Assembly: GCA_017608045.1 (NCBI GenBank) | Contig: JAFCGN010000003.1 | Span: 1-54,465 of the forward strand | Reading direction: 5' to 3' | Length of the DNA: 54,465 nucleotides | From: Candidatus Parvarchaeota archaeon | Lineage (GTDB): Archaea; Nanobdellota; Nanobdellia; JAFCGN01 | Part shown: one piece after another, positions 25,453 to 54,465 of the stretch | How positions within the stretch are numbered: the first letter of the stretch is position 1 | Layout: each line of letters begins with the position of its first letter | The notes under the pieces: generated by a model | Told to the model about the DNA's origin: nothing | The model's database searches: none | Seen by the model: only the letters and a program-made list of their open reading frames with translations | Made by a program: the position numbers and the translations under genes

Positions 25453-26268
25453 ATGGTTTTAGAATCTTTGATTAACCCTTACCAAGCAAAGAAAAGTCCA
25501 ACAAGTTTGTTTTTGCTCGGATTATTGTATTCAACATTTGCAGTTTTGCTTTCGCTTACAATTTTTCCTGAAGACCCTTCACTAACAATCGTTTTTTTGA
25601 CTGTTATGGGAGCACTCCCTCTTTTTGTGAACACAATAAAATCTGAACAAAGAAAAGATTATAGAAGAGTTCCTTTAATCAAAGAGCATACAGACATTTT
25701 TCTTGTATTCCTCTTTCTTTTTCTTGGAATTCTTTTTGGTTATATATTCTGGGATTCCATTCTCCCAAACCAATTATTCATGGTTCAAGAAAAAACAATT
25801 GAATCAATTAATAATGAATTTTCTTCACAAATTGCATTTACAGGCAGTGCTGTTAATTTGAAAGCGTTTTCAATTATTTTGTTAAACAATATTAAGGTTC
25901 TTGCATTTTGTTTTCTTTTTTCTTTCCTTTATGGAAGCGGAGCATTATATATTCTTACGTGGAATGCAAGCGTGATTGCAACAGCAATAAGTCAATTAAT
26001 ACAGAGTGAGATGATTGCTCTTGCACCATCATTAATTAATTATTTTAAAGCAATTAATGTTGGCTTAGGCTCTTATTTAATTCATGGCATACCAGAAATA
26101 CTTTCTTATTTTATTGCAGCAGTTGCAGGCGGTATTATTAGTGCAGCAGTAATAAGACATGATTACAAGAGCAAAGAATTTAAAAATACATTAATTGATA
26201 GTATTGATTTAATAGCCATGTCATTAATTATATTATTAGTGGCAGGATTTATTGAAATCATAATTTAA
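25453..26268 (+). CDS. SpoIIM/DUF95-family membrane protein
   Basis: 'IILLNNIKV', 'WNASVI' and 'HGIPEI'. Confidence 0.8.
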   Translation: MVLESLINPYQAKKSPTSLFLLGLLYSTFAVLLSLTIFPEDPSLTIVFLTVMGALPLFVNTIKSEQRKDYRRVPLIKEHTDIFLVFLFLFLGILFGYIFWDSILPNQLFMVQEKTIESINNEFSSQIAFTGSAVNLKAFSIILLNNIKVLAFCFLFSFLYGSGALYILTWNASVIATAISQLIQSEMIALAPSLINYFKAINVGLGSYLIHGIPEILSYFIAAVAGGIISAAVIRHDYKSKEFKNTLIDSIDLIAMSLIILLVAGFIEIII

Positions 26269-39330: not shown

Positions 39331-39425
39331 GATTTTTATATCTTATTTACATTTTTATTACTTTTTGGGTTTTCAAGAAAAACTTTCGATAGAGTTAAAA
39401 AAACTTGAACATTATATTATACTTG

Positions 39426-39914
39426 ATGAGAAAAAAACTATTATTTTTTGCAATTCCTCTTTTTTTAAACATAGCATTAGCACAATATTATTACCCTTTT
39501 CAACAATCAAGAACCTCTGAGTTAATAAATACTTTTTTAATGAACAATCAAAAACTTGTTTTAAGTCTTGTGTTTGGAATGCTTACTGCTGTTTTTGTTA
39601 ATTTTGCTCTTAGTGGAAAAGACAATCCTTGGAAGAATAATTCACAAAAACAAAATCTTGCTCTTGCTCTTGGGCTTGCTGTTTTTGCTTTCACTTATTT
39701 TTCCACACCTCAGATTCAAATGCCAGCTATTAACATGAGTATTGTAATGAGTTTTTTTATTCTATTATTAATTGGGTATATTGTTTTTAGAATTCTTAAA
39801 AGCGAGAATCTTTCATCACCTGGAATGCTTTTATTCTTAGGGATTTTGCTCATACTTTTTGCAATTCTTGTTCAATACTTGAACACTGGAAGATTTCAAT
39901 TTTCTATTGAGTAA
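39426..39914 (+). CDS. Signal-peptide-bearing multi-TM membrane protein (ORF track start 39405)
   Basis: MRKKLLFFAIPLFLNIALA-like signal peptide followed by about 4 TM helices. Confidence 0.65.
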   Translation: MRKKLLFFAIPLFLNIALAQYYYPFQQSRTSELINTFLMNNQKLVLSLVFGMLTAVFVNFALSGKDNPWKNNSQKQNLALALGLAVFAFTYFSTPQIQMPAINMSIVMSFFILLLIGYIVFRILKSENLSSPGMLLFLGILLILFAILVQYLNTGRFQFSIE

Positions 39915-39987
39915 AAATTCTTTTTTTAAATATGAGGGTCTTAACAATATTTTTAAATTGGATTGGTGTTAATATTTTTGATAGAAC

Positions 39988-42972
39988 ATGAATTTAATTG
40001 GGGCATTGCTTCCATTTATAGGTTTAACAGGAGCTGTTTTAATAGTTGCTGCTATTATTAAGAGTTTTGGTTCTAATAGAAGTGAAGATAATAGTGACGG
40101 TGCAAATGTTGATTTAAGTGGTGTTGAAAATGCAATAAATAATGTTAATACCAGAATTGATAATATTGTTAATGAATTACAAACTAATAGAACTCAAATA
40201 GAGAACAATAATAATGAAATAATTGCTTCAAGAGATGCTGTTGTTCAAGAAGTGACTAATCTTGCTACAACAATGAATGCAAGATTTGATCAAGTTGATA
40301 CAGCAATAAATGATTTGAGAAATGACATAACCTCTCGTTTTAACAATATTGATAATAATATTGCAACTTTAAGCACTTCTATTAATGAAGTTAATACGCG
40401 TAGCAGAGCAATGAATCAGGTTATAAGAACTTTGCCGCGAAGATTTCATGAAGTTCATAGGCATATGCAGAGCAATTTAAGAAATCTGCGCCAACACATA
40501 ACTCAAACAAGTACAATTACTGATGATTTAATCACTCAACTTATCACAGATTTATACAATTCAATCATGAATAATGTTTATAATCCACTGACTACTCAAA
40601 TAAATGATTTTAGGAATGGTGTTGTTAATTTTTTAGGCCATAACATTATTCCTGCAATTACATCATTTTCTCAAAGTTTAACTCAAATTCTTACTGATTT
40701 AACGAATTTTAGCAACAGATTTAACAATTTCACTACAAATGATTTTCAAACACTTGTTAATACAGTCAATAACTTAAATTCTTTTGTTACATCTGATTTA
40801 AGTGAAGCAGTTGAAAGAAACAGAAGCATGGTTGGCGACGTGTATAATGAATTAATTAATGTTCAAACAAGTCTTTCTGAAAATATAAACAATGCATTGA
40901 GAGACATTCAATCAGAATTAAATGATTTAAGAACTAATGCGGGAGACGCAGAAACTCGTTTTGACAATATTGAGGATGCATTAAATAATATTAATGATGC
41001 AATAAATAATGTGTCTAATACTTTACAACCCCATATTAACAATGTTTCTAAAAATTTTGATGCTGTTAAAAAATCGCTTGGTAAATTAGAAAAAGAACAG
41101 AAAAATGCTAAAAAAGAGTTTGAAAAATTAAACAAATCATTTAAAACTTTTAAAACAAGTGAGTTTCCTAACGCAATTAATGATTTGAAAACAAACATTG
41201 CGCAACTTTCTGCTAAGATTGAACAAGCAATTAAAGATGGCAATAAGGACGTGATTAATGAATTAAAGACTGAAATAAGTGATGCTGAGAATAGGCTTAA
41301 ATCATTAATTAATAATCTGCCTAATGAAATTAAAGAGAGTTTTAATGATGAATTTGAAAAAATAGGAGCAGACTTAAAGGATCTTAAAAAAGGAGTTGAA
41401 GAAAATAAAAAACTAATTGAAAAACATGATAGAGAAATTAAAGATTTTTTGAAAGATATTTTGTCAAGTATTGCAAGTCTTGAAAAAACATTAAGTGGTT
41501 TATCTGAAGATTACAAAAAGCTTGTTGAAGATTACAAGAATGCTATGGAAAAACAAAACCAATTAGGAGAAGAAATTGTGAAATTGTTAAAGGGAATTGA
41601 TGCTAATAAGCTTAATGAGAATATAACAAAACTTGAAGAACTTATTAAACAATTAGAATCTCTTAAAGCTCAAGCGGAATCAGTTAAGAAATCAGAAAGC
41701 ACTGCTGAAGCCGGAGATGTTATTAATAATTATATAGATAACTCTACTAAGATTATTAATAATATTAATAATCAAATTATTGTTATTACTGAATTTTATT
41801 CAACCACAAGAGAGAAGATTCCAAAAATAATTGGTGGTTCAAAATTAACGCAAGAAGAAGAAAAAGAAGTTACGAACTTGGTGTCTCAACTTTTTACAGC
41901 ATTAAGTATAATGGATTCAATAACTGATGAAGTATTGCCTGAAGGTGCAGAATTTCTTATTAACATAAAAAAACTTCTTAAAACTTATTCCAAACAAATG
42001 AAGAAATTGCACGAAACTGCTGTGAATAATTTAAAAGAATATAAAAAAGAAAAATCCAAATCAAATTCTGAAGAAGCAAATAAACTTCATTATTTGTTTG
42101 ATTTTGATTTATTTAAACATGCATTAGACACTCTTGATAGCATGAATTCTAGATTGGACAAAATAAGAAAAATAGAAATAAGGATGGGTTCGCGACGACA
42201 AGTTGAGAGAACCGCTGAAAGAATGGAAGAAGGAAGAACAAGAACAGCGCTTTCAGAAGAAAGTGTTTTAGAAGAAAGTTATTCAATAAAAAAGATGTTC
42301 TACGAAATTGAAGAGAATGTTGTTGGAAGTTTTGAAAGAGTTGTTAGAATTTCTTCTGTTGAAAATTATATTGAGAACCTGCAAGAGTGGTTTTATTTAA
42401 CACAACAAGCGAGTTTTAATCTTAAGTATTTGGAGAGAAGATTAAAAGGAAGTCTTCTTCCCATTACTGAAAATGAGGTTGATTCTTTAAAAGATTTAAT
42501 AGATGAAGAAAAAAATAGATTAAGTAAATCAAAAAAAGATTTTGAAAAAATCACTGGTGAAAATAATCCTAATGAAGAAGAAATAAGTAATGCTATAAAC
42601 GCGCTTACAGAAACAATTGATTATAAAGATGAAGAAAAAACATTTAAGCATTTTGAAACAGTTTTAAAGGAAAACATAAATGAGAAAATAAGGGATTATG
42701 AGGTTTTCACAGAATTCATGACAACATACAAGGACTTGTTGGTTCGCTTGTTTAATTCTTTTGTTATTGATGTTCTTATAAAACACGGAAATAAGAATAA
42801 AGAAGATTATGTTAAATTTTATTTTAAAAAAGCGAGAAGAAGAGGGGATATTGAATCTTCTGACTTAAAAACTGTTTTCGGACACAAGAAATTAAATGTG
42901 TCGGGTGCAAGAATAAATTCTAGGAAATGGAAGAAGCTTACTAAATGGAGCAAAGTAAAAAAAGCAATTTAA
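39988..42972 (+). CDS. Giant (994 aa) N-terminally anchored coiled-coil protein
   Basis: Hydrophobic aa 1-24, then heptad/hendecad repeats (RFDQVDTAIND, RFNNIDNNIAT, RFDNIEDALNN), then K/E-rich helices. Confidence 0.85.
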   Translation: MNLIGALLPFIGLTGAVLIVAAIIKSFGSNRSEDNSDGANVDLSGVENAINNVNTRIDNIVNELQTNRTQIENNNNEIIASRDAVVQEVTNLATTMNARFDQVDTAINDLRNDITSRFNNIDNNIATLSTSINEVNTRSRAMNQVIRTLPRRFHEVHRHMQSNLRNLRQHITQTSTITDDLITQLITDLYNSIMNNVYNPLTTQINDFRNGVVNFLGHNIIPAITSFSQSLTQILTDLTNFSNRFNNFTTNDFQTLVNTVNNLNSFVTSDLSEAVERNRSMVGDVYNELINVQTSLSENINNALRDIQSELNDLRTNAGDAETRFDNIEDALNNINDAINNVSNTLQPHINNVSKNFDAVKKSLGKLEKEQKNAKKEFEKLNKSFKTFKTSEFPNAINDLKTNIAQLSAKIEQAIKDGNKDVINELKTEISDAENRLKSLINNLPNEIKESFNDEFEKIGADLKDLKKGVEENKKLIEKHDREIKDFLKDILSSIASLEKTLSGLSEDYKKLVEDYKNAMEKQNQLGEEIVKLLKGIDANKLNENITKLEELIKQLESLKAQAESVKKSESTAEAGDVINNYIDNSTKIINNINNQIIVITEFYSTTREKIPKIIGGSKLTQEEEKEVTNLVSQLFTALSIMDSITDEVLPEGAEFLINIKKLLKTYSKQMKKLHETAVNNLKEYKKEKSKSNSEEANKLHYLFDFDLFKHALDTLDSMNSRLDKIRKIEIRMGSRRQVERTAERMEEGRTRTALSEESVLEESYSIKKMFYEIEENVVGSFERVVRISSVENYIENLQEWFYLTQQASFNLKYLERRLKGSLLPITENEVDSLKDLIDEEKNRLSKSKKDFEKITGENNPNEEEISNAINALTETIDYKDEEKTFKHFETVLKENINEKIRDYEVFTEFMTTYKDLLVRLFNSFVIDVLIKHGNKNKEDYVKFYFKKARRRGDIESSDLKTVFGHKKLNVSGARINSRKWKKLTKWSKVKKAI

Positions 42973-43032
42973 AGAATAAATAATAATGAATAAACATAAA
43001 ATAAATAAATTATGTTTTTCTTTTGATTATCA

Positions 43033-45216
43033 ATGACAATATCAATTATTTCAGTAATTTCTGCAATTGGCTTAACAGCATTAGGAGGTGCTGGCTTATA
43101 CGCTGCTTATAAATGGGTTGTTAAACACCCTGCAGGAAAGAAAATACGAGTTAAAACAAGAAGAGCGAGCAAGCAGGAGAGAAAGAAAGCAAAGAAAATA
43201 GCTAAAAAAATTCTTAAAGGAAGTTGGAAACTTCTTTCTAGTACTGGCAGGGGAGTGTATTATGTTGCGCCAAGAATATGGCGTGGAACTAAAAAAAGTG
43301 CGAAAACAATAACAGGATCAAGCAAAAAAATTTTTAAAAAAAGTTATAAAACTCTTAAAAACATTTCTTCTTCACTCAAGAAAATCAAGTTCAATAAATT
43401 AAGAAAATTTGTTAAAAAAAAGCAATCAAAAGAAGCATTAGAAGAAACTCAAAAACTTGAAAAAGAAATTAATGAATTAAAAAAAGAAGTTGATGAAATA
43501 TTAGAAGAATTAAAAAATAAGCCTTTTGAAAAAAAAAGTGCAGAAGTAGAAAATATTTCTAATGAATTAGGAGGATTAAGCCGAGGAGTAAGTGCTATTG
43601 AAAACCAAGTAATGGGGAAAGAAAGTATTTCAGACGAGGAATCACAAGTATTATTAGAAGAAATTAAGAAAGTAGAAGAGAGTAAAGAAACATTTGAGAA
43701 GAATTTAGAGAAAGCAATAGAAAGAATAAATGAGTTAGATGAATTAGGAGTAGAATCAGAAGAAGAAAGAGAAATGGAAGAAGAGCAAGAAGGAGTAGGC
43801 AGGAAAACCGAGAGATTGTTAGGTTATTATGAGGGAAGAAGAGGAGAACTTGAAAAAACAAGTTTTGTCATAGAACCTGATGAGAGGATAAGAGATTATA
43901 TTTTAAGAGTGAAAAAAGATTTTGAAAAATTATTCTTTCCATTAATTTTTATTGACCCTTCTGATAATGAAAAAAAATTCAGGGAAGAAGAGTTCAGGTA
44001 CTCTGTTGAAGGATTCAATGCATTAAATGTTGATAATGAAGATTTTATTGAAATTGCTTCAGAATTAGCAACTTCTTTATTGTTTTCCATTATTGAATTA
44101 ATTTCTTCAGAAGAAATCATGAAAAGCAAAATAAAGGAATTGCAGGAGAACCTTGATAAGTTGAAAGAATTTGTTAATGAAAATGAGGATAAAGTTAATA
44201 ATAAAGAAAATGTTTTAAAACTTCTTCAACAATTAATTACTTCTTTAGAGCCTTATGCTAATACCTCGTTTAAAAAAATATACTTTGAAGGAGGAGAGAT
44301 TACCTTAGGAAATTATAAAAAACAATTACGCGATGTTGTAGAATTAATTTGTAATTATAAAAGTTCAGAAGAAACTTCAAGTAAGAATTATAAAGAGGAC
44401 ATAAAAAGTAGTTTAAAAAGAGTTTATAAACACTTTCTTAAAGTGCAAGAGGATTACTTAAAGTTAAAACATTGGGCTGAGAAGAATTTATCATGGTTTG
44501 AAACTCTTGCTAATTCCTTCAAAAATAATGCAGTATTCATGAGTGGTGAAAAAGAAATTAGTGAAAAAGAACCTAAAAAAGAAGCATCAGATAAAGTGAA
44601 GAAAGAAGTTTCAACTTTGATTGAGCAAATAATAACTCAACTTAATGAAATAAAGTTTTATGATGGAAGCGTTCAGGATTATCGTAAATTATTAGAACAT
44701 GTTAAAGAAGGCAGAGGAGGTATTACAGCGAATACTCTTGATGATGTAAAAAATAATATTATTAGACCCATTGATGTTTTAGGAGGATTTTATTATGGAT
44801 ATGATTTCAAAAGTCTTTTACGATTAAACATAAAAACCCTGCCTGAAAAATCAGAAGAGTATATTAAAGAATTCATTAATCAACTTCAAGAAAAAGTAAT
44901 TAAAGGAATGCTTAAGAAAGATGTTGAATTAATAACAGAAGTTATTACTAAAAATCCTTTAATTAATAAAAAAATCAAAAAATCTGTAAATGAATTGAAG
45001 GAAATTGCTTTAAATGCTTTAAAGGGTTATGAGAAGTACTTAAGTTCTTGTGATATTCCTTTATACAAAAAAAGAAGACTGATTTATCTTGATAATAAAA
45101 ATCTTTCTAAACTAATTGGTATTAATTATAAAAAGAAAAGTTTTTTTCCTAAAACACATAAAATATTAAGTGAATGGTTTAGGAAGGAAGCACAAGTTAA
45201 TAAAAAAAACACTTAA
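43033..45216 (+). CDS. 727-aa N-terminally anchored protein with basic region and acidic coiled coil
   Basis: Gly/Ala-rich hydrophobic N-terminus, K/R-rich aa ~28-135, then E-rich heptads. Confidence 0.85.
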   Translation: MTISIISVISAIGLTALGGAGLYAAYKWVVKHPAGKKIRVKTRRASKQERKKAKKIAKKILKGSWKLLSSTGRGVYYVAPRIWRGTKKSAKTITGSSKKIFKKSYKTLKNISSSLKKIKFNKLRKFVKKKQSKEALEETQKLEKEINELKKEVDEILEELKNKPFEKKSAEVENISNELGGLSRGVSAIENQVMGKESISDEESQVLLEEIKKVEESKETFEKNLEKAIERINELDELGVESEEEREMEEEQEGVGRKTERLLGYYEGRRGELEKTSFVIEPDERIRDYILRVKKDFEKLFFPLIFIDPSDNEKKFREEEFRYSVEGFNALNVDNEDFIEIASELATSLLFSIIELISSEEIMKSKIKELQENLDKLKEFVNENEDKVNNKENVLKLLQQLITSLEPYANTSFKKIYFEGGEITLGNYKKQLRDVVELICNYKSSEETSSKNYKEDIKSSLKRVYKHFLKVQEDYLKLKHWAEKNLSWFETLANSFKNNAVFMSGEKEISEKEPKKEASDKVKKEVSTLIEQIITQLNEIKFYDGSVQDYRKLLEHVKEGRGGITANTLDDVKNNIIRPIDVLGGFYYGYDFKSLLRLNIKTLPEKSEEYIKEFINQLQEKVIKGMLKKDVELITEVITKNPLINKKIKKSVNELKEIALNALKGYEKYLSSCDIPLYKKRRLIYLDNKNLSKLIGINYKKKSFFPKTHKILSEWFRKEAQVNKKNT

Positions 45217-45286
45217 TTTCCTTCAATTAATTAAAATTACTTTTTTTTAGTTAATTATTTAAGCAATAATTATTTATTTCTAAAAT

Positions 45287-45811
45287 ATGGCAGGACCATT
45301 AGAACTTGCAATACAAGGACTTAAAGAACTTGGTTTTTTTAATGTTCTCTTGCCATTTCTTCTTGTATTCACAGTCATTTATGGCATTCTTGAAAGAACA
45401 AAAGTGTTTGGAGACAAGAAACACGATATTAATGCAGTAGTAGCGTTCACCATAAGCATGATGGTTATTGGGACAACATGGGTTGTGGGAGCAATAACAA
45501 ATTTTTTACCCTATGTTGGAATGATTAGCATTGTTGTTGTAAGCTTGCTTTTACTTGCAGGAATGATGTTTTCAAATAATCTTGAAGGACTCTTTAATGA
45601 AAAATGGTTTCAAACAGGCGGTGTTATTGTTATTATTATTGCCATATCCTTAAGTTTAATGTATGTTTTTGGATTAGAATTAACAACAGGCGGGGGTTAT
45701 ATTTTAGGAATACCTGTTAATGATTTTGCTACAATAATGGGTTTAATCCTGTTTTTTGCACTTATTGTATGGATGGTAAGGCCTGAAAGTTCGAATGGAG
45801 GAAGCAAATAA
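45287..45811 (+). CDS. Small multi-TM membrane protein (paralogue 1)
   Basis: 'LPFLLVFTVIYGILERTKVFG...INAVVAF'. Confidence 0.8.
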   Translation: MAGPLELAIQGLKELGFFNVLLPFLLVFTVIYGILERTKVFGDKKHDINAVVAFTISMMVIGTTWVVGAITNFLPYVGMISIVVVSLLLLAGMMFSNNLEGLFNEKWFQTGGVIVIIIAISLSLMYVFGLELTTGGGYILGIPVNDFATIMGLILFFALIVWMVRPESSNGGSK

Positions 45812-46392
45812 TGAGTAGTGTCTCAGAATTTTTTAAATTAATGTTTGCTTCTGTAGGTGCATTAGCGCCTGCTGGAATAGACCCAACTCTTTTTTTTACA
45901 ACATTCTTTGTTGTTTTTGCAATAATTTTCACTGGTTTAAGCACGGTTAAAGTGTTTGGGAACGCAACTAATAACAATAAAATAAGAGCGATATTCGCTT
46001 TTGTTGCAGCATATTTCACAGCAACAAGCGCGTTCGCAACAGTTATGATAAGCAAACTTTTTCCAAATCTTGGAGTTGTTTTAATCAGTGTTATTGTAAT
46101 GCTTGTTGTAACTTCATTTGTTAGTGGTTCAGGAAAACCTGTTAGTGGAGGTTTTTTAAAAGTTATAATGCTCTTGCTTGTTGCATGGATTATTTGGAAT
46201 TCATGGAACAGTGCAACTTGGGAAGTATACGGGTATAAAACACAAGTTCAAGTTTCAATGCAAGATATAGCGGATATAGTGTTAGTCATAATTTTTATTA
46301 TTATTTTTCTTAAAGTGCTTGGTGTTGGCGGAGACAAGAGTGGAGGAAACTCTACTCTAAAAGAGTTCCTAGGAGATTTGCTGAAAAGTTAA
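45811..46392 (+). CDS. Small multi-TM membrane protein (paralogue 2)
   Basis: 'FFVVFAIIFTGLSTVKVFG...IRAIFAF...LFP'; 1-nt overlap with the upstream gene. Confidence 0.8.
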   Translation: MSSVSEFFKLMFASVGALAPAGIDPTLFFTTFFVVFAIIFTGLSTVKVFGNATNNNKIRAIFAFVAAYFTATSAFATVMISKLFPNLGVVLISVIVMLVVTSFVSGSGKPVSGGFLKVIMLLLVAWIIWNSWNSATWEVYGYKTQVQVSMQDIADIVLVIIFIIIFLKVLGVGGDKSGGNSTLKEFLGDLLKS

Positions 46393-46451
46393 TTAAAAAA
46401 GATTAAATACAAGGATTAAAAAATAAAAAATATAGAGGTGAAAAAAATAAA

Positions 46452-47015
46452 ATGGCAGAAGAAACATTCCTTCAAGCAGTAGGATTATTAGATTATCTTG
46501 GCTTTGAATATTTTTTAGTTCCCTTATTCATATTCACTCTTCTCTTTGCAATACTTCAAAAATACAAGATAATAAGTGAAAAAATGGATGCAAACGCAGT
46601 TATTGCTTTTGTTTTAGCAATGCTCACAGCAATGTTTCCTGATTTAAGCACGTTTATTTACAGGTTATTGCCTTTATTCGTTGTTTTTTTGATAGTAGGT
46701 TTTTCAGTAATGCTTTTTTTTATGTTTTTTGGATTAAAACAAAACGAAGTTGTTGATTTTATAAAAAAACCAGGCATAGTTATCATCATTTTTGCTATAA
46801 GCATTATAATATTCGCAAACGTGTTTAGTTCTCAATTTGGTTCAGCATTCACGCCCGGAGAATTTGAACCAACAAACGAGTCCTCATACACTGGAACAGG
46901 AACACAAGTATTTGCAAGAATTTTAGCCCACCCAAAAGTTCTCGGCACAATAATTCTTTTAGTACTTCTTGCTTTAAGCACGTATTTAGTGGCGCACAGC
47001 ACATTAGAAAACTAA
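46452..47015 (+). CDS. Small multi-TM membrane protein (paralogue 3)
   Basis: 'VPLFIFTLLFAILQKYKII...ANAVIAF...LLP'. Confidence 0.8.
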   Translation: MAEETFLQAVGLLDYLGFEYFLVPLFIFTLLFAILQKYKIISEKMDANAVIAFVLAMLTAMFPDLSTFIYRLLPLFVVFLIVGFSVMLFFMFFGLKQNEVVDFIKKPGIVIIIFAISIIIFANVFSSQFGSAFTPGEFEPTNESSYTGTGTQVFARILAHPKVLGTIILLVLLALSTYLVAHSTLEN

Positions 47016-47026
47016 CTCTTTCGTTA

Positions 47027-47704
47027 TCATTTACTTTTTTTACCCTTCTCAACTAAATTGCGGAGTTGTTGAATATTATCACTAAGCGCAGGAATTAATT
47101 TACTCATTGCTTTCTCAACAGCTTGAATTTCTATTTTTGAATCTGTTATTGCCTTTCCATATTCCTCTACTTTCTGCATTGTTTGAGCTTGAATCATATC
47201 CAATCTTGTTTTTAAATCCTTTACTTTATCATTTAAACTATTCACCATGCTTTCTGTTTTATTTCTCCAAACATTAAATCTTTCCATTTCAGATTCTACT
47301 TCCTTCCACCTCTCTCTTATTATTTCTTCAAGTATTCTTTCTATCTCATTCACATCTAATTTTTTCCCACCAACATCACTTACGGGTGCAGTACTTGTTG
47401 GCGCTGTAATTGTTTCAACAGGTGCTTCAGTATTTATTGGACTTGTTGGCGCTGTAGGTGCTTGCTCTATAGGACTTAAATCATTAATGCTTGTTATTTG
47501 TGAACGCAAGTCAAGTTGAGCAAGAGCATCTCTTATTTGTGAAAAAGAATAACCCTGTGCTTTTAATTGATTAATTATTTGTTCATTATTCATTCCACTA
47601 CTTCTTAGAGCTGCAGCTTCTTTTAAAGGAAGCGCGCCTGGAGGAGGCGGACTAACACCACTTATTGCTGCAACTTTCTCCTTTTTTCTTCCAAACAAAC
47701 CCAT
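47027..47704 (-). CDS. Coiled-coil protein with small N-terminal helical bundle and P/T-rich linker
   Basis: MGLFGRKK, SPPPPG, 'QIINQLKAQGYSFSQIRDAL' and C-terminal heptads. Confidence 0.8.
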   Translation of the reverse strand: MGLFGRKKEKVAAISGVSPPPPGALPLKEAAALRSSGMNNEQIINQLKAQGYSFSQIRDALAQLDLRSQITSINDLSPIEQAPTAPTSPINTEAPVETITAPTSTAPVSDVGGKKLDVNEIERILEEIIRERWKEVESEMERFNVWRNKTESMVNSLNDKVKDLKTRLDMIQAQTMQKVEEYGKAITDSKIEIQAVEKAMSKLIPALSDNIQQLRNLVEKGKKSK

Positions 47705-47743
47705 TTTTCATCCCTTTTTTAAACTATAACTCATTAAGTATTA

Positions 47744-48145
47744 TTAATTTTTCTTTTTACGCACTTTTTTTCTTTCAAAAAGTTTTTCAGCATCCGCTAA
47801 TGTTAAAAATCTTGTTGGATCAAATAAATCAACATACTTTTCTAAAACTTTTAAATCACTGATTTTCGCACTTGTTTCCGCTTCTTTAATTAAATGTCTT
47901 GTTGTTTCTCGAATATCCTTATAATTCTTATTTAATTCTTCAATTTGAATAGAATTCTCTGTAATAAGCTCCTTCAACTCATTTGTTCTTCTTAAAAGGT
48001 TTTGATCTGTTGCCTTTAACTTTTCTCTAAGTTGTTCAAACTTTTCTTCTAATAATCTAACCCTATTACTTAAATCACTAATTTTATCGCTCGCAAATTT
48101 TAAAAATTCTTCACTAATAGGTTGTTGAGTTGGCATTTTCATCAC
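47744..48145 (-). CDS. Small coiled-coil protein (start probably 48142 or 48136)
   Basis: Continuous heptads; C-terminus 'KVLEKYVDLFDPTRFLT'. Confidence 0.8.
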   Translation of the reverse strand: MMKMPTQQPISEEFLKFASDKISDLSNRVRLLEEKFEQLREKLKATDQNLLRRTNELKELITENSIQIEELNKNYKDIRETTRHLIKEAETSAKISDLKVLEKYVDLFDPTRFLTLADAEKLFERKKVRKKKN

Positions 48146-48211
48146 ACAAAATTTCTTTTTTCCTCTTTCTTAACTAAACTATAACAATTTTCTCTTATAT
48201 ATTTATTTATA

Positions 48212-48360
48212 AGTAAGAACCTCCAGCGGGTTCACTAATCACAAAGTGATTGTGCCCAAGTTACCCCAGTAACTTAGGGCTTACTAACTCCCTTATTATA
48301 TGTTTATGTTCTTTGGGGTAACTTACACCTTTCTTACAAGAAAGGAGCAGAGTCAGAATC
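48212..48360. other. GC-enriched structured intergenic element (perfect four-way junction plus alternative long-range pairing); candidate ncRNA/regulatory leader
   Basis: Helices AGTAA/TTACT, GAACC/GGTTC, AC-AATCAC/GTGATT-GT, GCCCAAGTTAC/GTAACTT-GGGC and CCTTTCT/AGAAAGG; AAGTTACCCCA (48258-48268) is complementary to TGGGGTAACTT (48314-48324). Confidence 0.65.
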
Positions 48361-48422
48361 ATTTAAATTTTTGTAATATAATATTTAAATGTGCAATTTT
48401 TTAATTAGTTATAGGTGCAGAG

Positions 48423-50711
48423 ATGGTTGAGAAAAAAAAATTATATTCTTATGAGATAGAGATAGAAGGTAATACAAGAAATCTTGTTATAAATTGTGTG
48501 GGAAGTCTTTATTACCCAAGCATTGAAGATAATGAGTTTTACATGAGCATGGTAATAGGCTATCTCATAGAAACTGGTTTTGTGAATAACATAACATTAG
48601 CAGGGGAAAGAAACTACATTTATACAGAAGAGCAAGCGCAGATGCTTTATGAAATTGCTCAAGCATACACTCATTTAATAAGACAAGAGAAAATAATAAG
48701 TATTGCAAAATTAGGTCCAACAGATTCTGAAAAAAAATTTTTGCCTGAAAGAATTAATACAATGCGTTCCATTGTTTTAGAACTTTTGAGAAGCGATCCA
48801 GTGAGCGCATATGTTAAAGCAATAAGAACATTGCGCGAGCAGAAAGTGAAAATGGAGGCGCTTCCTTTAAAACAAAGATTTATTTTCAAAACTTATGTAA
48901 ATGCTTTAGAAACAGTAATAACTTTACTAGAAAAAACAAGACTAATAAAAAAAGCAAAACCTTTTATTGCAGGACACAAAATAGGGGACAGGGCAATTTA
49001 TAGAGAATTGTTTGAACCTATAATAAAACCAAACTTTATGCTTACACGCCTCATGGCTGAAGCACCACTGAAAGGAGAGGAAGTTGATTCATACAATATT
49101 GGCAAATTCGAGAAAAGCACTGTAGTCATTTACAAACTTCCAAATACTGTTCGGTTAAAATATCATATAAGTCCGCCAGAGTTTAATCTAACTGAAGAAG
49201 AAAACACTCTTTTAACTGATGCGCAAAAAGTATTAAGCAGGTACAAACCAAAAGGCGCGGAATTTGTTGATCCTTCTCGCATGAGAATGGTTTTTTATAA
49301 CATTGCTAAAGACCTTCTTGATGAACTTGCTGTAAGTAAAGGATTGCATATGAAATACAATGAAATTGAAGAGCTTTCAAGAATTCTTGTAAGGCTCACA
49401 GTCGGTTTTGGTTTAATTGAGGTTCTGCTTGAAGACCCTTACATAGAAGACATTTACATTAATGCACCAATTGGACAAACACCTATTTTTTTGAAACACG
49501 CGAAATACGGGGAATGCGAAACAAATATTATTCCAAACATACGAGAGGCGGAAGCATGGGCTTCAAGATTTAGAATGATAAGTCAAAGACCTCTTGATGA
49601 AGCAAATCCTGTTTTAGACACAGAATTATTTTTACCTGCTGCTAGAACAAGAGTTGCAATAATCCAAAGACCCTTGAGTCCGCAAGGTTATTCTTTTGTA
49701 TATAGAAAACACAAACCCACACCATTCACGTTTCCAATGTATATTAATTACAAGTTTTTATCTCCATTAGCAGCAGGATTGCTTTGGTTTTTAACAGATG
49801 GTGCAAGAACAATGATGATTGCAGGCACAAGAGGCACTGGAAAATCAAGTTTGCTTGGATGCATAATAGGAAATATAATGAGAAAATACAGGATAATCAC
49901 TGTTGAAGACACTCTTGAACTGCCCGTGGAGTATTATAGAAAACTTGGTTTTAACATAATACCAATGAAGGTAAGAAGTGCTATTTTAGGAGAGAAATCA
50001 GAACTTAGTGCAGCAGAAGGAGTAAGAACTTCTTTGCGTTTAGGGGATAGTGCGTTAATTGTTGGTGAAGTAAGAAGTAAAGAAGCTCTCGCTCTTTACG
50101 AAGCAATGCGTGTAGGCGCATTAGCTAATGTTGTTGCAGGCACGATTCATGGTGATAGCCCGTACGGTGTTTTTGACAGAGTTGTAAATGATTTAGGAGT
50201 GCCAAGAACAAGTTTTAAAGCAACAGATATAATAATGGTTGCAAATAAAATAAGAGGCGCAGGTCAATTAACAGAAAATAGAAGATTAACTACAATTGCA
50301 GAAGTAAGAAAGCATTGGGAAGAAGACCCTCTTAAAGAACAAGGATTTGTGCATCTCATGGAATATGACTCAAAGAAAGACATGATTATGCCAACAAGTG
50401 CTCTTCTTGATGGGGATTCTGAGGTTGTAAAAAGCATTGCAGGAAAAGTTAGGGATTGGGTTGGAAATTGGGACAGGGTTTGGGATAACATTGTTTTAAG
50501 AGGGAAGATAGCAAAACTAATGGCTGATTATGCTAAGAAACCTGGAAACTCATGGATACAAGAAGCAGATTTTGTTGTGGTTGGAAATGATAATTTTCAC
50601 AAAATATTTGGAGAATTAAAAGAAGAAAGTGGGTATCCAGATAGCAAAGATGTTTTGTTTCAGTTTGAGAATTGGCTTAAAACACAGATAAGAATGAGAA
50701 AGAAAAGGTGA
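48423..50711 (+). CDS. Type IV pilus/type II-IV secretion ATPase (VirB11/TadA/ArlI family)
   Basis: Walker A 'AGTRGTGKSS', Asp box 'ITVEDTLEL', Walker B 'LIVGEVR' and His box 'GTIHG'. Confidence 0.93.
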   Translation: MVEKKKLYSYEIEIEGNTRNLVINCVGSLYYPSIEDNEFYMSMVIGYLIETGFVNNITLAGERNYIYTEEQAQMLYEIAQAYTHLIRQEKIISIAKLGPTDSEKKFLPERINTMRSIVLELLRSDPVSAYVKAIRTLREQKVKMEALPLKQRFIFKTYVNALETVITLLEKTRLIKKAKPFIAGHKIGDRAIYRELFEPIIKPNFMLTRLMAEAPLKGEEVDSYNIGKFEKSTVVIYKLPNTVRLKYHISPPEFNLTEEENTLLTDAQKVLSRYKPKGAEFVDPSRMRMVFYNIAKDLLDELAVSKGLHMKYNEIEELSRILVRLTVGFGLIEVLLEDPYIEDIYINAPIGQTPIFLKHAKYGECETNIIPNIREAEAWASRFRMISQRPLDEANPVLDTELFLPAARTRVAIIQRPLSPQGYSFVYRKHKPTPFTFPMYINYKFLSPLAAGLLWFLTDGARTMMIAGTRGTGKSSLLGCIIGNIMRKYRIITVEDTLELPVEYYRKLGFNIIPMKVRSAILGEKSELSAAEGVRTSLRLGDSALIVGEVRSKEALALYEAMRVGALANVVAGTIHGDSPYGVFDRVVNDLGVPRTSFKATDIIMVANKIRGAGQLTENRRLTTIAEVRKHWEEDPLKEQGFVHLMEYDSKKDMIMPTSALLDGDSEVVKSIAGKVRDWVGNWDRVWDNIVLRGKIAKLMADYAKKPGNSWIQEADFVVVGNDNFHKIFGELKEESGYPDSKDVLFQFENWLKTQIRMRKKR

Positions 50712-52837
50712 TTTTTTTGGCAAAAAAGAAAACCAATGATAAGAATAAACAAGATTATGCAGAAAATGATAATTTGCCTAATTATGAAGGGGTTACTGAT
50801 GAATTAGTTGAAAAATTATTTAAAAAATATGGAGCAAATAAGCCAACAGAAGAAGAAATGAAGATGTCTGCTGAAACATACATTAGGAGTAGAGAATACA
50901 AAATTTTTACAAAAAGAGAAGAGAATAAGTGGGTAAGAAGGTATGAAAAATGGTGCGCTAAAGCACAGAAAATTTTACCAGTAAGTGTTACTGAAGAAGA
51001 AAAAAAAATTGTTAATAAGGCAATTGAAATAAGTGATTTAAAAGTTACTCCAGAAGGTGTTGCAAGTTTTAGTTTTATTGTTTTTGCTATTTTCTTAGTT
51101 TTTTCTTTGATAACTGCACTAATCTCGCCTTTATTTATGATTTTATTTGCTGTTATAGGATATGCTGTATTCAATTATTTAAAAAAATATCCTAAAAAAG
51201 CTGTTGAAAATGCGCAAGTAAAGGCAAGCGGTGAAACAATTCTTGCTGTTTTATATCTTGTTATTTACATGAGGCACACGCCAAATATGGAGGCTGCGGT
51301 TAAATTTGCAAGCGATAATCTTACAGGTCCTCTTGCTAATAGTTTCAGAAAGCTTTTATGGGATGTTCAATCGAGAAAATATAAAAATATTAGCGAAGCA
51401 TTAGATGCTTACACAAAAGAATGGGGGGAGTTTAATAAACCATTTACTGATGCCATATACTTGATTGAATCTTCAATGTATCAGACAAAAGAAGAGCACA
51501 GAAAGGATTTACTTAATCGCGCTCTTGATAGGATTCTTGACGGCACATTTGAAAGAATGAGCACGTACGCGCATTCATTGAAAACCCCTGTTGACACTAT
51601 TTATACAATGGGTATTATCCTGCCAGTATTAGGATTAGTTATGTTTCCAATGCTTGCTGCTTTTATGAGTGACATGGTTAAACCGCAAACCATTGCTATT
51701 TTTTATAATATCATGCTCCCCATTTTTGTTTTATTTTTTGAAAAATTAATTTTTATGAAAAGACCTGTTGGATTCCCAACTCCTGACATAAGTAATCATC
51801 CTGATATGCCTAAAAAAGGATGTTTTAAAATGGGGGGTAAAAATGTAAAAGCATGGCCTATAAGTTTGTTAATCCTTTTAATTGGCGTAATACCATTTAT
51901 TATGTATTTAACAAATGCACCATCTCAACCATCTGAAAAAGACATATTCATTAGTTTACTCCCTATTTTTGGAATTGCTTTTAGCATATGGTTTTATACA
52001 AAAAACATTAGTGCTCCAAGACTCAAAATTTTGAAAAAAGTAACAAGTGTGGAAAAAGAATTAGCAGATGCGCTTTTTCAATTAGGGATGAGAATTGGAG
52101 AAGGCAATCCACCGGAAATTGCAGTTCAAAAAGTTGCTGCAGTGATGAGGGAAAGTGAAACAGCAATGTTTTTTAAGAAAATCACAGTGAATATGAAAAG
52201 ATTAGGATATAGTTTTGAAAGAGCAATATTTGATGAAAATTATGGAGCAATACTTTTTTACCCTTCTCCAATGCTTAAAAGCGTGATGGAAGTTTTAGTA
52301 AGTTCAAGCAATAAAAGTCTTGAAGTTGCCGCAGTTAGCATGATAAATATTGCAAGATATTTGCAAAACATTGGAAGAATAAATGACAAAGTTGTGGATA
52401 TACTAAGTGATACTGTTTCTGGAATTAAATTTCAGGCAAGCGTTATTACGCCTATTGTTAGTGGAGTTGTTGTTGGATTAACTTCTTTAATAATAATTAT
52501 TTTATCCTTGCTTTCTTCCAAAATGGAAGAACTTAGTGCATTAAGCGGAGGAGATTTAGGTCCCTGGGCATTAGGCATGTTTAGTATGAGTGGTTCAGTG
52601 CCACTTTATTTGTTTCAGCCAATAGTTGGCATTTATTTAATAGAGATTGTGCTCTTAATTGGTTCCCTTGATGCTGATATTGAAACAAATGGTCATCCCT
52701 TATATAGAAACAATATAATTTCTAAATTAATCCTTCCCGCAGTTATTATCTATGCAATTGTTGGTGTTGCTTTAACAGTTATTTTTGGAGGATTAGGAAA
52801 AGCTGCTTTAGCAATAGGAGGCTCTTTTGGTGTTTAA
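50708..52837 (+). CDS. Type IV pilus membrane platform protein (TadC/ArlJ-like, two T2SS-F-like domains); likely TTG start 50717
   Basis: Multi-TM protein with 'PNMEAAVKFA', 'ELADALFQLG...GNPPE'; overlaps the ATPase stop; SD AGGTGA. Confidence 0.85.
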   Translation: MIFLAKKKTNDKNKQDYAENDNLPNYEGVTDELVEKLFKKYGANKPTEEEMKMSAETYIRSREYKIFTKREENKWVRRYEKWCAKAQKILPVSVTEEEKKIVNKAIEISDLKVTPEGVASFSFIVFAIFLVFSLITALISPLFMILFAVIGYAVFNYLKKYPKKAVENAQVKASGETILAVLYLVIYMRHTPNMEAAVKFASDNLTGPLANSFRKLLWDVQSRKYKNISEALDAYTKEWGEFNKPFTDAIYLIESSMYQTKEEHRKDLLNRALDRILDGTFERMSTYAHSLKTPVDTIYTMGIILPVLGLVMFPMLAAFMSDMVKPQTIAIFYNIMLPIFVLFFEKLIFMKRPVGFPTPDISNHPDMPKKGCFKMGGKNVKAWPISLLILLIGVIPFIMYLTNAPSQPSEKDIFISLLPIFGIAFSIWFYTKNISAPRLKILKKVTSVEKELADALFQLGMRIGEGNPPEIAVQKVAAVMRESETAMFFKKITVNMKRLGYSFERAIFDENYGAILFYPSPMLKSVMEVLVSSSNKSLEVAAVSMINIARYLQNIGRINDKVVDILSDTVSGIKFQASVITPIVSGVVVGLTSLIIIILSLLSSKMEELSALSGGDLGPWALGMFSMSGSVPLYLFQPIVGIYLIEIVLLIGSLDADIETNGHPLYRNNIISKLILPAVIIYAIVGVALTVIFGGLGKAALAIGGSFGV

Positions 52838-53297
52838 AAAAATGAATAAAATGTTAATTAGTTTAACTGCAAGGTCTCAAATAAACGTTGATTTGGTTGT
52901 GATAATTATGAGTATAGTAATTTTAGCCATGTCCATTGCTGTTGTTCTTTTTATTGCAGGGCCTTCTTTGAAAGATAAAGGCGGGTGCAATAATAATTGC
53001 ATATGTGAAGATAGTTTGGTTGATCCTTCTTTAAAAGGCACAGAAAATGACAGGCATGAAACAAAATATAATTGTTTCCCCCCTTTTTCAAATGATTGTT
53101 GCAAAGACGATGATGAAAATGTTTTTGATTGTGTTGATATTAATAAGATATCCCCAATGGATTATGATCCTGCGTGTTTTGATACAGTAACAATTTTTGA
53201 TAATGACGGCGTGTGCAGTTATTTTGAACCTTGTGATTCAATTGATTGTTCAAATAAGGACAACAAAGGCGCAAGTAGGTGCTATCCAACAGATTAA
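52827..53297 (+). CDS. Pilin-like protein with class III-like signal and 12-Cys acidic head
   Basis: 'ARS|QINVD' followed by a hydrophobic helix; 12 Cys in the C-terminal ~100 aa. Confidence 0.65.
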   Translation: MVFKKMNKMLISLTARSQINVDLVVIIMSIVILAMSIAVVLFIAGPSLKDKGGCNNNCICEDSLVDPSLKGTENDRHETKYNCFPPFSNDCCKDDDENVFDCVDINKISPMDYDPACFDTVTIFDNDGVCSYFEPCDSIDCSNKDNKGASRCYPTD

Positions 53298-53321
53298 AAA
53301 ATTTAAATTAAGTGATGAAAT

Positions 53322-53441
53322 ATGGAATTTGAGGAACTTGGAAAATGGGTGCTTACTGTTGTAGCAATAAGTGTTTTAATAGGTTTAGTAATACTCTTTT
53401 ATGGCTTTATAAAAGAAATAGGAACAGGTGGTTTTTTTTGA
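53322..53441 (+). CDS. 39-aa pilin-like peptide (absent from ORF track)
   Basis: MEFEELGKWVLTVVAISVLIGLVILFYGFIKEIGTGGFF*. SD-like GTGAT precedes it, and its stop overlaps the next TTG start. Confidence 0.7.
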   Translation: MEFEELGKWVLTVVAISVLIGLVILFYGFIKEIGTGGFF

Positions 53442-54465
53442 ATAAAAAAAGTGCAAGCATATACATGATAGCTGGCATTGTTGGAGCAATTATTTCTGTT
53501 TCAATGATCCTCATATTTGTAGGTGGAAGCCTGTATTTTACTAAATATGCTGGAAGTGCAACAGTAAGCACAATAACTTCTTTGAGAGCAAGAGTAGCAA
53601 GTGTTTTATGGGATCCAGATGATGGGATAGGAGACTTTCAATTTCTTAAACAATTTAAACGCACTGTTTTTAACTATATTATGGACAAACTTTATGTTCC
53701 TGTTCCCTCTGTAGAAGGTTTTTCTTTTGAACCTCTCATAAGCGAGTATAAGAATGTTGAAGAAGAAATTTTAAATGAAGAAGGGAATAAAATTAAAGTT
53801 ATGGTTTCACAGAATTCAGGCGTGCTGCAAATTGCAGGAGACATACTAACAACATGGAATGCTTTTCATGGAAACAAAGATTATGATATGCTTTATGAAA
53901 CGCCTGAAAACAAGATTGACAATCCTTTTTTGTTTTCAATGTTCTCCTTCTATCTTAAAGGAGAACCCATAAGATTCTCAGATATTATAACTAATGCATC
54001 AAAACTAAATGGCAAGGATGTAAATATTGTTGTTAAAACAACAGATGGCTTAACTTTGTTTAATAATTTAAATAATATTTATGGAAATGTTTCCATAGAT
54101 TTTTACTTAACGCAAGGAAATAGTGATGATGAAAATTATTACAATAGGTATAGGTTTTTTTACGGTTATTTTGATTACGGGCCTAAATGGTGCGGAATAC
54201 ACGAGAATAAAATGAATGAAAGCGCTGATGTAAAAGAATATGGAGCTTATTTTTACTGTAATAAGATTGATGACAAAGAATTTGGTTTTAATTCAAGCAG
54301 AAATTATTTGCCCCAAATATATAAGAAATTTAGACTTTTAAAAGGCTTAAATTTTATTTATTATGTTAGTGAGTCAAGTAATGTGGGCGGGACTGTTGAG
54401 TTTGTTAGTGATCCCTATAATGATAAAAGCATTAATCATAAAGGAAAAGACGCGGTTCTTGTAGG
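53438..54465 (+). CDS. Exported pilin/adhesin-like protein, 3'-partial (absent from ORF track)
   Basis: TTG start after AGGTGG; 'NKKSA|SIYMIAGIVGAIISVSMILIFVGG' followed by a soluble domain; the frame is open to the window end. Confidence 0.75.
   Translation, partial: MNKKSASIYMIAGIVGAIISVSMILIFVGGSLYFTKYAGSATVSTITSLRARVASVLWDPDDGIGDFQFLKQFKRTVFNYIMDKLYVPVPSVEGFSFEPLISEYKNVEEEILNEEGNKIKVMVSQNSGVLQIAGDILTTWNAFHGNKDYDMLYETPENKIDNPFLFSMFSFYLKGEPIRFSDIITNASKLNGKDVNIVVKTTDGLTLFNNLNNIYGNVSIDFYLTQGNSDDENYYNRYRFFYGYFDYGPKWCGIHENKMNESADVKEYGAYFYCNKIDDKEFGFNSSRNYLPQIYKKFRLLKGLNFIYYVSESSNVGGTVEFVSDPYNDKSINHKGKDAVLV

Follow-up and report, generated by a model that had tools for sequence, protein, structure and literature searches.

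To our knowledge, little is understood of the means by which DPANN archaea reach their hosts and stay attached to them, with type IV pili (T4P) as the leading candidates. The question raised here is whether one end of an archaeal contig from Candidatus Parvarchaeota archaeon (JAFCGN010000003.1, assembly GCA_017608045.1) encodes a device of this sort, and which of its genes belong to it. The whole stretch analysed, 54,465 nucleotides with a G+C content of 28%, is called the window below. A reading made from the letters of its last 15 kb (the sequence-only reading) had joined two giant anchored coiled coils (cc994 and cc727), three membrane proteins (tm174, tm193 and tm187, the membrane triple), two small coiled coils (cc225 and cc133), a secretion ATPase, a platform protein and pilins into a single host-contact and fusion apparatus. 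All the open reading frames (ORFs) that it named were found where it had placed them, and ORFs of 700-1000 codons at this G+C content cannot have arisen by chance. The locus is a DPANN T4P locus of a known kind, associated with coiled-coil proteins (CCPs), with its core genes at 48.4-54.5 kb. Its stretch from 45.3 to 54.5 kb probably encodes the pilus machinery together with a five-gene accessory module that would serve as scaffold and anchor, with cc994 and cc727 lying outside it.

The pilus core

The ATPase matched the Pfam family T2SSE (E 4.9e-18) and carries a Walker A motif (GTRGTGKS at 468), a Walker B-like motif (LIVGEVR at 545) and a His-box (GTIH at 573). The sequence-only reading had called it a VirB11 ATPase; its matches in the PDB placed it nearer to Archaeoglobus GspE2 (2OAP, 1.6e-27), CpaF (1e-22) and FlaI (3.8e-20) than to VirB11 (~3e-5), and both its ends are longer than those of FlaI and GspE2. 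With the NCBIfam models it scored 126 bits for FlaI (cut-off 550) and 54 bits for VirB11 (cut-off 250), both below the cut-offs. A scan with one genome per species gave 48 orthologues at 41-70% identity. The window thus holds a secretion ATPase of the PilB/GspE/ArlI family, as looked for in an archaeal T4P locus. In some orthologues of 1276-1494 residues, one or two inteins with LAGLIDADG endonucleases were detected (L001:11330-15160, L004:12120-16603 and L056:10001-14386, where L numbers denote the related loci), and the window ATPase carries no intein.

The 709-residue protein encoded directly downstream is translationally coupled to the ATPase, whose stop codon its gene overlaps. An orthologue followed the ATPase in 38 of the 42 loci that extend far enough, and weak T2SSF matches were obtained for 6 of 38 such orthologues (best E 6e-4). 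Mainly from its context, this protein is taken to be a very divergent platform of the TadC/ArlJ type.

The ORFs after the platform were tested for a class III-type N-terminus, defined as [KR][GAS] plus a hydrophobic segment, and both p156 (..TARS followed by QINVDLVVIIMSIVILAMSIAVVLF..) and the last ORF (LNKKSA followed by SIYMIAGIVGAIISV...) passed. The C-terminal domain of p156 has 12 Cys within ~110 extracellular residues. No other gene of the locus differs as much between close relatives: p156 is 70% identical in L011, compared with 88-93% for its neighbours. In L007, the next gene after the 752-residue homologue of the last ORF encodes a pilin-like protein, of a family with MDKKG or MKKG at its N-termini. 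Across the related loci, class III-like N-termini were found in 63 of the 166 ORFs lying up to 8 kb downstream of the platform and in 7 of 325 other ORFs (Fisher p 3e-26), many of the downstream ones in the canonical form M(N/D)KKG plus hydrophobic segment. Substrates with predicted class III (prepilin) signal peptides are present in the locus. Of the pilins that had been proposed, the class III N-termini following the platform stood, whereas the last supposed pilin is the beginning of a large protein.

An archaellum was rejected, as the sequence-only reading had done: the FlaI model stayed below its cut-off, and neither KaiC-like proteins nor ArlH, ArlF/G or archaellins were found in the locus by Pfam and NCBIfam scans. 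It had likewise excluded a classical secretion system, and a VirB/D4 type IV secretion system was discarded here because of the low VirB11 score and because no other family of such a system was found in the locus.

A conserved seven-gene block

Gene order was compared in 48 species-level loci of Woesearchaeota and Nanoarchaeota taken from the ATPase scan, with profile searches of all their ORFs; the denominators given below include only loci with enough flanking sequence to judge. The recurrent order was [TM x3 ->][<- cc225 <- cc133][ATPase -> platform ->], where TM stands for the transmembrane proteins of the triple. Of 39 loci, 32 have a cc133 gene, in each case divergent from the ATPase, and 31 of 39 have cc225; the membrane triple adjoins cc225 in 24 of 32. 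Order and orientation within the block were invariant across the 48 loci despite the low identity of their ATPases, and the same layout was recovered by searches that started from the TM family (L001-L005) or from cc225 (L062, L063).

The genes outside the block vary by subclade. In one subclade the upstream genes are PRC-barrel, TraB, M50-like and Hef, and in other subclades the neighbours are quite different; the PRC-barrel, TraB and M50-like genes of relatives are absent from the window. As the outer neighbours differ between subclades while the seven genes persist, the block is therefore kept for its own sake. Synteny across DPANN had been named as a way to check the sequence-only reading, and the outcome was divided. 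The membrane triple, cc225 and cc133 accompany the ATPase and platform in dozens of species, so these five genes are genuine partners of the pilus motor that are specific to the lineage, whereas cc994, cc727 and the first gene of the region (o39405) occurred in none of the 48 loci.

All the named close relatives of the window proteins belong to Woesearchaeota or Nanoarchaeota. Several public metagenome-assembled genome records titled 'uncultured Methanosarcinales archaeon' (L025, L030, L035, L037-L039, L041, L051 and L057) carry this DPANN-type locus with ATPase identity of 47-53%, and their taxonomic labels are probably wrong.

The small coiled coils

In the AlphaFold2 model of cc225, an N-terminal three-helix domain (27-74) is joined through a disordered, P/Q-rich linker to one helix of 107 residues (118-224) with pLDDT >90. 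At least 133 homologues of cc225 were found, and every named one is from DPANN (Woese-, Nano- or 'Parv'-archaeota). The heptad helix of cc133 precedes AKKEDVKVLEKYIxLWxPxxFVT, a conserved C-terminal motif. As no signal peptide, class III signal or TM segment was detected in either protein, both are predicted to be cytoplasmic. The region had been described as containing only envelope genes, which does not hold for the ATPase, cc225 and cc133, nor, by the prediction given below, probably for cc727.

Scans of Pfam and NCBIfam, made member by member on the cc225 and cc133 alignments, returned heptad-repeat noise only. The vATP-synt_E model gave 17 bits for cc133 (cut-off 24.2) and did not recur among the 38 members of the family, and for FlaC_arch no more than 3 of 38 members gave a match, with E ~0.01. 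In the PDB, the best match of the cc133 profile was reovirus sigma-1 (6GAO, E 1.4e-4), and the cc225 profile matched a phage short tail fibre (7.6e-7) and the heptad repeats of coronavirus S2.

Proteins of this description have been reported before. Hamm et al. 2024 (Nat Commun 15:6449, PMC11291902) described two T4P-like loci that are conserved in cluster-2 DPANN, among them Woesearchaeota, and in which DPANN-specific CCPs lie beside CpaF and TadC. These loci occur in Woese-, Pace-, Nano-, Nanohalo- and Aenigmarchaeota, with one or two CCPs per locus; a structure like that of sigma-1 (6GAO) was predicted for the CCPs, proteomics of Ca. Nanohaloarchaeum antarcticus detected them, and the loci were proposed as candidates for host interaction (PMC11291902). 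The window agrees with them in having cc133 and cc225 adjoining a T4P ATPase and a candidate platform, an arrangement kept in ~80% of the loci, and in 6GAO as top PDB match of the cc133 profile. In Nha. antarcticus, the FlaI-like ATPase Halo_Nar1_01710 (1249 residues) lies two locus tags from a CCP and bears an intein, as do those of L001, L004 and L056. Because of the shared 6GAO match and the intein-bearing ATPase near a CCP, cc133 and cc225 are regarded as probable counterparts of the published CCPs, whose reference proteins are NAR1_01690 and NAR1_03220. DPANN-specific, 6GAO-like coiled coils beside a CpaF-like ATPase and a putative TadC-type protein are thus found here too. The host-contact idea keeps this much ground, in that coiled coils encoded with T4P genes were already candidates in the literature, whereas the giant coiled coils are not in the conserved set.

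The published CCPs were read as attachment-like, in contrast to the cytoplasmic site predicted for cc133 and cc225. An alternative in line with the former is that both are exported as sigma-1-like trimeric fibres, acting as adhesins on or beside the pilus. Their best PDB matches are indeed viral, and the same viral resemblance was reported in PMC11291902. However, the two proteins lack any export signal among those searched for, they are transcribed away from the pilin genes, the cc225 model had no Foldseek match in the PDB at E<=0.001, and the viral matches are limited to heptad-repeat helices, as expected of any long coiled coil. These matches are taken as heptad-repeat similarity and not homology, and the exported-fibre explanation is considered very unlikely.

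The membrane triple

The three membrane proteins had been called paralogous, and BLASTP bore this out (tm174 vs tm187, E 7e-6; tm174 vs tm193, E 0.007; paralogue identities 31% and 22%). A word-indexed search found only 36 relatives, most of them unnamed and the named ones from Woese-, Nano- or Pacearchaeota, and the family shares a conserved N-terminal motif, ..LLPFLLIFTIIFAILEKTKIFG... The AlphaFold2 model of tm174 has six helices (pLDDT 76.7) and no Foldseek match in the PDB at E<=0.001. No relative of the family was found in Pfam, NCBIfam or the PDB, where the best profile match was NuoJ with E 0.17. A prepilin peptidase identity was discarded because there is no conserved Asp, and an ATP-synthase stalk or proteolipid was rejected after the family scans.

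Across 65 members of the family, loops 1 and 3 and the C-terminal tail hold on average 6.1 K/R per protein, compared with 1.4 for the N-terminus and loops 2 and 4. This distribution predicts an N-out/C-in topology with little exposed outside the cell, the outside segments being only about 14 and 22 residues long, so that a large external ring is unlikely. The membrane paralogues are not mentioned in the main text of Hamm et al. 2024, the preprint does not contain the word 'transmembrane', and no other description of them was found in the literature. They form a DPANN-specific, previously undescribed family of membrane proteins.

The giant coiled coils

Heptad patterning covers 67% of cc994 (6% in shuffled sequences) and 47% of cc727 (8%). 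A single homologue of cc727, 87% identical, was found among 5.8 billion proteins. For cc994, an exhaustive search of 1.84 billion representatives gave one full-length homologue (67% identical), two fragments, of which one matches residues 520-994 at 100% identity, and otherwise weak coiled-coil noise. The full-length homologue belongs to a sister strain, represented by L060 and joined by L007. The other genes of this strain share 96-99% identity with the window, compared with ~66% for cc994 and ~90% (87-91%) for cc727. The upstream gene o39405 had no family above cut-off in Pfam or NCBIfam, is 98% identical in L060, and is probably a flanking gene outside the conserved system.

The divergence between the strains is confined to part of the pair. 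Residues 1-400 of cc994 are 95-100% identical, whereas residues 600-994 are 24-39% identical, with flanking genes at 98-99% identity, and their synonymous divergence (dS) is 0.9-2.0, where the background is 0.05-0.07; divergence is likewise elevated in residues 100-500 of cc727. The hypervariable block spans positions 41200-44500 of the window (cc994 ~400-994 and cc727 ~100-500), L060:10001-12943 and L007:89-2257. Because the dS of the cc994 C-terminus exceeds the background to this extent, the block is, to judge from its divergence, an allelic cassette of ~3 kb replaced by recombination and not the product of drift in place. A diversity-generating retroelement was rejected as the source of variability, since it would need a template/variable repeat pair, of which there is none, and since dS is saturated and ~3 kb has diverged. 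In the sister strain, the break between metagenome contigs falls exactly between the cc994 and cc727 genes.

The 30 residues after the membrane anchor of cc727 hold 14 K/R and 1 D/E, and residues 1-150 hold 43 K/R. Because of this excess directly after the anchor, the positive-inside rule predicts an N-out/C-in protein with a cytoplasmic body; the charge distribution of cc994 gave no orientation call. An SMC, Rad50 or EzrA identity of cc994 was rejected (43.5 vs 567, 40 vs 1000 and 31.8 vs 556 bits, heptad matches only). The sequence-only reading would also have fallen if its coiled coils and membrane proteins had matched known unrelated families (SMC, chemoreceptors, ATP synthase), and here it held, all scores being below the cut-offs and the matches limited to heptads.

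These data bear on the single host-contact and fusion apparatus, in which cc994 and cc727 would be extracellular stalks bridging to a host, coupled to a TM ring and a retractile pilus. All its genes are adjacent, and the run from cc994 to tm187 is co-oriented with short spacers. The two giants are hypervariable, as host- or virus-facing proteins often are, and DPANN are host-attached, with CCP/T4P loci proposed as interaction candidates (PMC11291902). Against this, cc994, cc727 and o39405 have homologues only in the sister strains, the charge of cc727 predicts a cytoplasmic body instead of an external stalk, and the TM paralogues expose only their two short segments. Retraction finds no support, as only one ATPase is encoded in the locus, and nothing there resembles a fusogen or bears on cytoplasmic bridges, so that the name of fusion apparatus is not borne out. 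The sequence-only reading had itself given lack of synteny with the pilus genes in relatives as grounds for abandoning it, and for the giants, missing from the 48 loci, this is therefore what was found. Altogether, we hold such an apparatus to be highly improbable. The pair cc994/cc727 is a strain-variable orphan pair upstream of the conserved block and outside the conserved machine.

In other species, giant proteins of 1500-2400 residues with an N-terminal anchor, unrelated to each other, flank the pilus locus (L004:1418-6997, L025:15109-22194, L033:92-4777, L050:4957-12051 and L056:1262-7699). They hold a variable position like that of cc994 and cc727 in the window.

Gene map and surroundings

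The features of the region are collected in Table 1.

Table 1. Genes and spacer of the T4P locus and its upstream flank in the window.
Feature	Length (aa)	Position	Strand	Description
o39405	169 (162 from ATG at 39426)	39405..39914	+	Signal-like N-terminus, 3-4 hydrophobic segments
cc994	994	39988..42972	+	One N-terminal TM, coiled coil
cc727	727	43033..45216	+	N-terminal TM, ~125 K/R-rich residues, then acidic coiled coils
tm174	174	45287..45811	+	5 TM; first of three tandem paralogues
tm193	193	45811..46392	+	5 TM; second paralogue; start overlaps tm174 stop
tm187	187	46452..47015	+	5 TM; third paralogue; convergent with cc225, 11-bp gap
cc225		47027..47704	-	Soluble coiled coil, no TM segment
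cc133		47744..48145	-	Soluble coiled coil, no TM; heptads in residues 10-95
Divergent cc133/ATPase intergenic region (277 bp)		48146..48422	.	Presumed site of both promoters
ATPase	762	48423..50711	+	T2SSE; PilB/GspE2/ArlI/CpaF family
Platform candidate	709	50708..52837	+	~10 TM; overlaps ATPase stop codon
p156	156	52827..53297	+	Cys-rich, pilin-like; class III-type N-terminus; start probably ATG at 52842
Miniprotein	39	53322..53441	+	Single TM; gene call shared by L007 and L011
Last ORF (start of a large protein)		53438..54465	+	Class III-type N-terminus; leaves the window; 752 aa in sister contig L007

The spacer between cc133 and the ATPase contains an insert of ~150 nt, richer in G+C (window 48200-48365) and single-copy in the window. 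It is common to L007, partial in L011 and absent from L012 and L013. It folds modestly better than shuffled sequences (z -2.9 for the + strand and -2.4 for the - strand) and matched no Rfam family; tRNA and Rfam scans of the whole window were also negative.

Elsewhere the window carries genes for Cdc6/Orc1 and FEN1, and its positions 1-30200 are occupied by a large cluster for protein glycosylation and polysaccharides. This cluster of ~30 kb includes AglB/STT3 (26280-29153), four PMT_2-type transferases, several GT1, GT2 and GT4 enzymes, a flippase, sugar-nucleotide enzymes, a SpoIIM-like membrane protein (25453-26268) and three ORFs of 352-628 residues without a family match.

The accessory module weighed against an independent function

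Several observations weigh against a pilus machine composed of the seven genes. At the core, the window platform protein had no match in Pfam, NCBIfam or the PDB; the PDB profile search and the NCBIfam scan of all members of its family were both negative, and no internal repeat was detectable, the N-half and C-half not matching in hhalign. Because of these negative tests the platform assignment leans mainly on context, and membership in T2SSF/TadC is weak. No prepilin peptidase (PibD/FlaK/EppA, A24) was found by Pfam among window ORFs of at least 110 residues; the genes for these peptidases usually lie at other places in a genome, for which reason its absence is no bar to a T4P assignment. For the accessory genes, hhalign gave a weak match between cc133 and cc225 (61% probability) and no relation between the TM family and the platform. 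The scaffold role of cc133 and cc225 would follow by analogy, and gene order is what ties the accessory genes to the pilus core.

An independent function of the triple and cc225 is ranked as the main rival. In this alternative they would form, perhaps with cc133 and a PRC-barrel protein, a membrane module of their own, for example in division, membrane organisation or the cytoskeleton, and their place beside the pilus genes would reflect conserved gene order or shared regulation instead of shared machinery. The triple is missing beside the ATPase in 8 of 32 loci. In L061:7001-9372 (GCA_025920735.1), it converges on cc225, and neither cc133 nor the ATPase or the platform lies within 7 kb; L006 has two tandem TM paralogues and no ATPase. 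For these reasons the triple could have a function of its own. In L061, a tRNA synthetase occupies the position that cc133 would hold.

A gene for a PRC-barrel protein of ~91 residues lies directly upstream of the triple and co-oriented with it in 15 related loci and in L062 (examples are L001:6960-7235, L004:9088-9378 and L062:9304-9585), with TraB/PrgY, M50-like and Hef genes beyond. The PRC-barrel family is tied to archaeal cell division. However, this gene occurs only in loci that share TraB, M50-like and Hef, which points to the general synteny of one subclade. Moreover, in ~80% of loci, from subclades that differ in their other flanking genes, cc133 and cc225 keep their divergent orientation to the ATPase. 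The gene cc225 is common to both partial arrangements and links the triple to the ATPase, since in L061 it stands with the triple and no ATPase, and in L025, L030, L045 and L056 with cc133 and the ATPase and no triple. An independent module is on balance unlikely, and the reading of the seven genes as pilus machinery with an accessory module is preferred.

Discussion

In the preferred reading, the core would be the ATPase with its coupled divergent platform, and the class III proteins would be the filament or substrates associated with it. At the base of the motor, cc133 and cc225 probably pair through their long helices as a cytoplasmic scaffold or regulator, for which the three membrane paralogues would provide a hetero-oligomeric membrane anchor. 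Such a role would be analogous, and not homologous, to that of ArlX, ArlC/D/E or PilM/N/O.

ArlX of Crenarchaeota, ArlC/D/E of Euryarchaeota and PilM/N/O of bacteria are alike in setting coiled-coil and membrane-anchored accessories around an ATPase and platform. They differ in that no homology to the window proteins was detectable, ArlH, ArlF/G and archaellins are absent here, and the anchor would consist of three polytopic paralogues instead of bitopic proteins. Likeness to the adhesive T4P of other archaea (Aap and Ups of Sulfolobales, PilB/PilC of Haloferax, Epd of Methanococcus) lies in the ATPase with a putative TadC-like platform followed by class III proteins, in the lack of archaellum-specific genes and in the fast evolution of the pilins. 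The window departs from them in a platform too divergent for Pfam T2SSF, in an ATPase extended at both ends, in five lineage-specific accessory genes and in pilin-like genes that are unusually large (752 residues) or Cys-rich. A soluble coiled-coil protein within a T4P locus is also shared with halobacterial subclade 4F: in the census of archaeal T4P loci by Makarova et al. 2016 (PMC4858521), this subclade has a cytoplasmic coiled-coil protein, arCOG07564, which resembles cc133 and cc225 by description alone, and ATPases of subclade 4F occur in nanoarchaea without identifiable pilins (PMC4858521).

Attachment to surfaces or host cells is the probable role of the pilus, as suggested by the lifestyle of these archaea and not by the window sequence. 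Type IV pili mediate adhesion in other archaea and in episymbiotic bacteria. A more specific proposal is that the triple with cc225 and cc133 is an undefined subcomplex of the motor, be it anchor, stator or regulator, replacing parts of PilMNO or ArlX, and that cc994/cc727 is a determinant of partner or virus specificity swapped by recombination; taken as a whole, this is offered as a speculative possibility of rather low probability.

Compared with the published loci, the analysis adds a defined seven-gene block that goes beyond ATPase and platform and is shared by most Woesearchaeota and Nanoarchaeota sequenced, an undescribed family of membrane proteins, and a hypervariable cassette of anchored coiled coils adjoining the locus. 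The predicted cytoplasmic site of cc133 and cc225 would revise the expected location of the published 'viral attachment-like' CCPs. Striking giant coiled coils next to a locus of this kind can prove to be strain-specific cargo, and should be kept out of models of the machine, for which the seven-gene block provides a concrete list of parts of the DPANN pilus.

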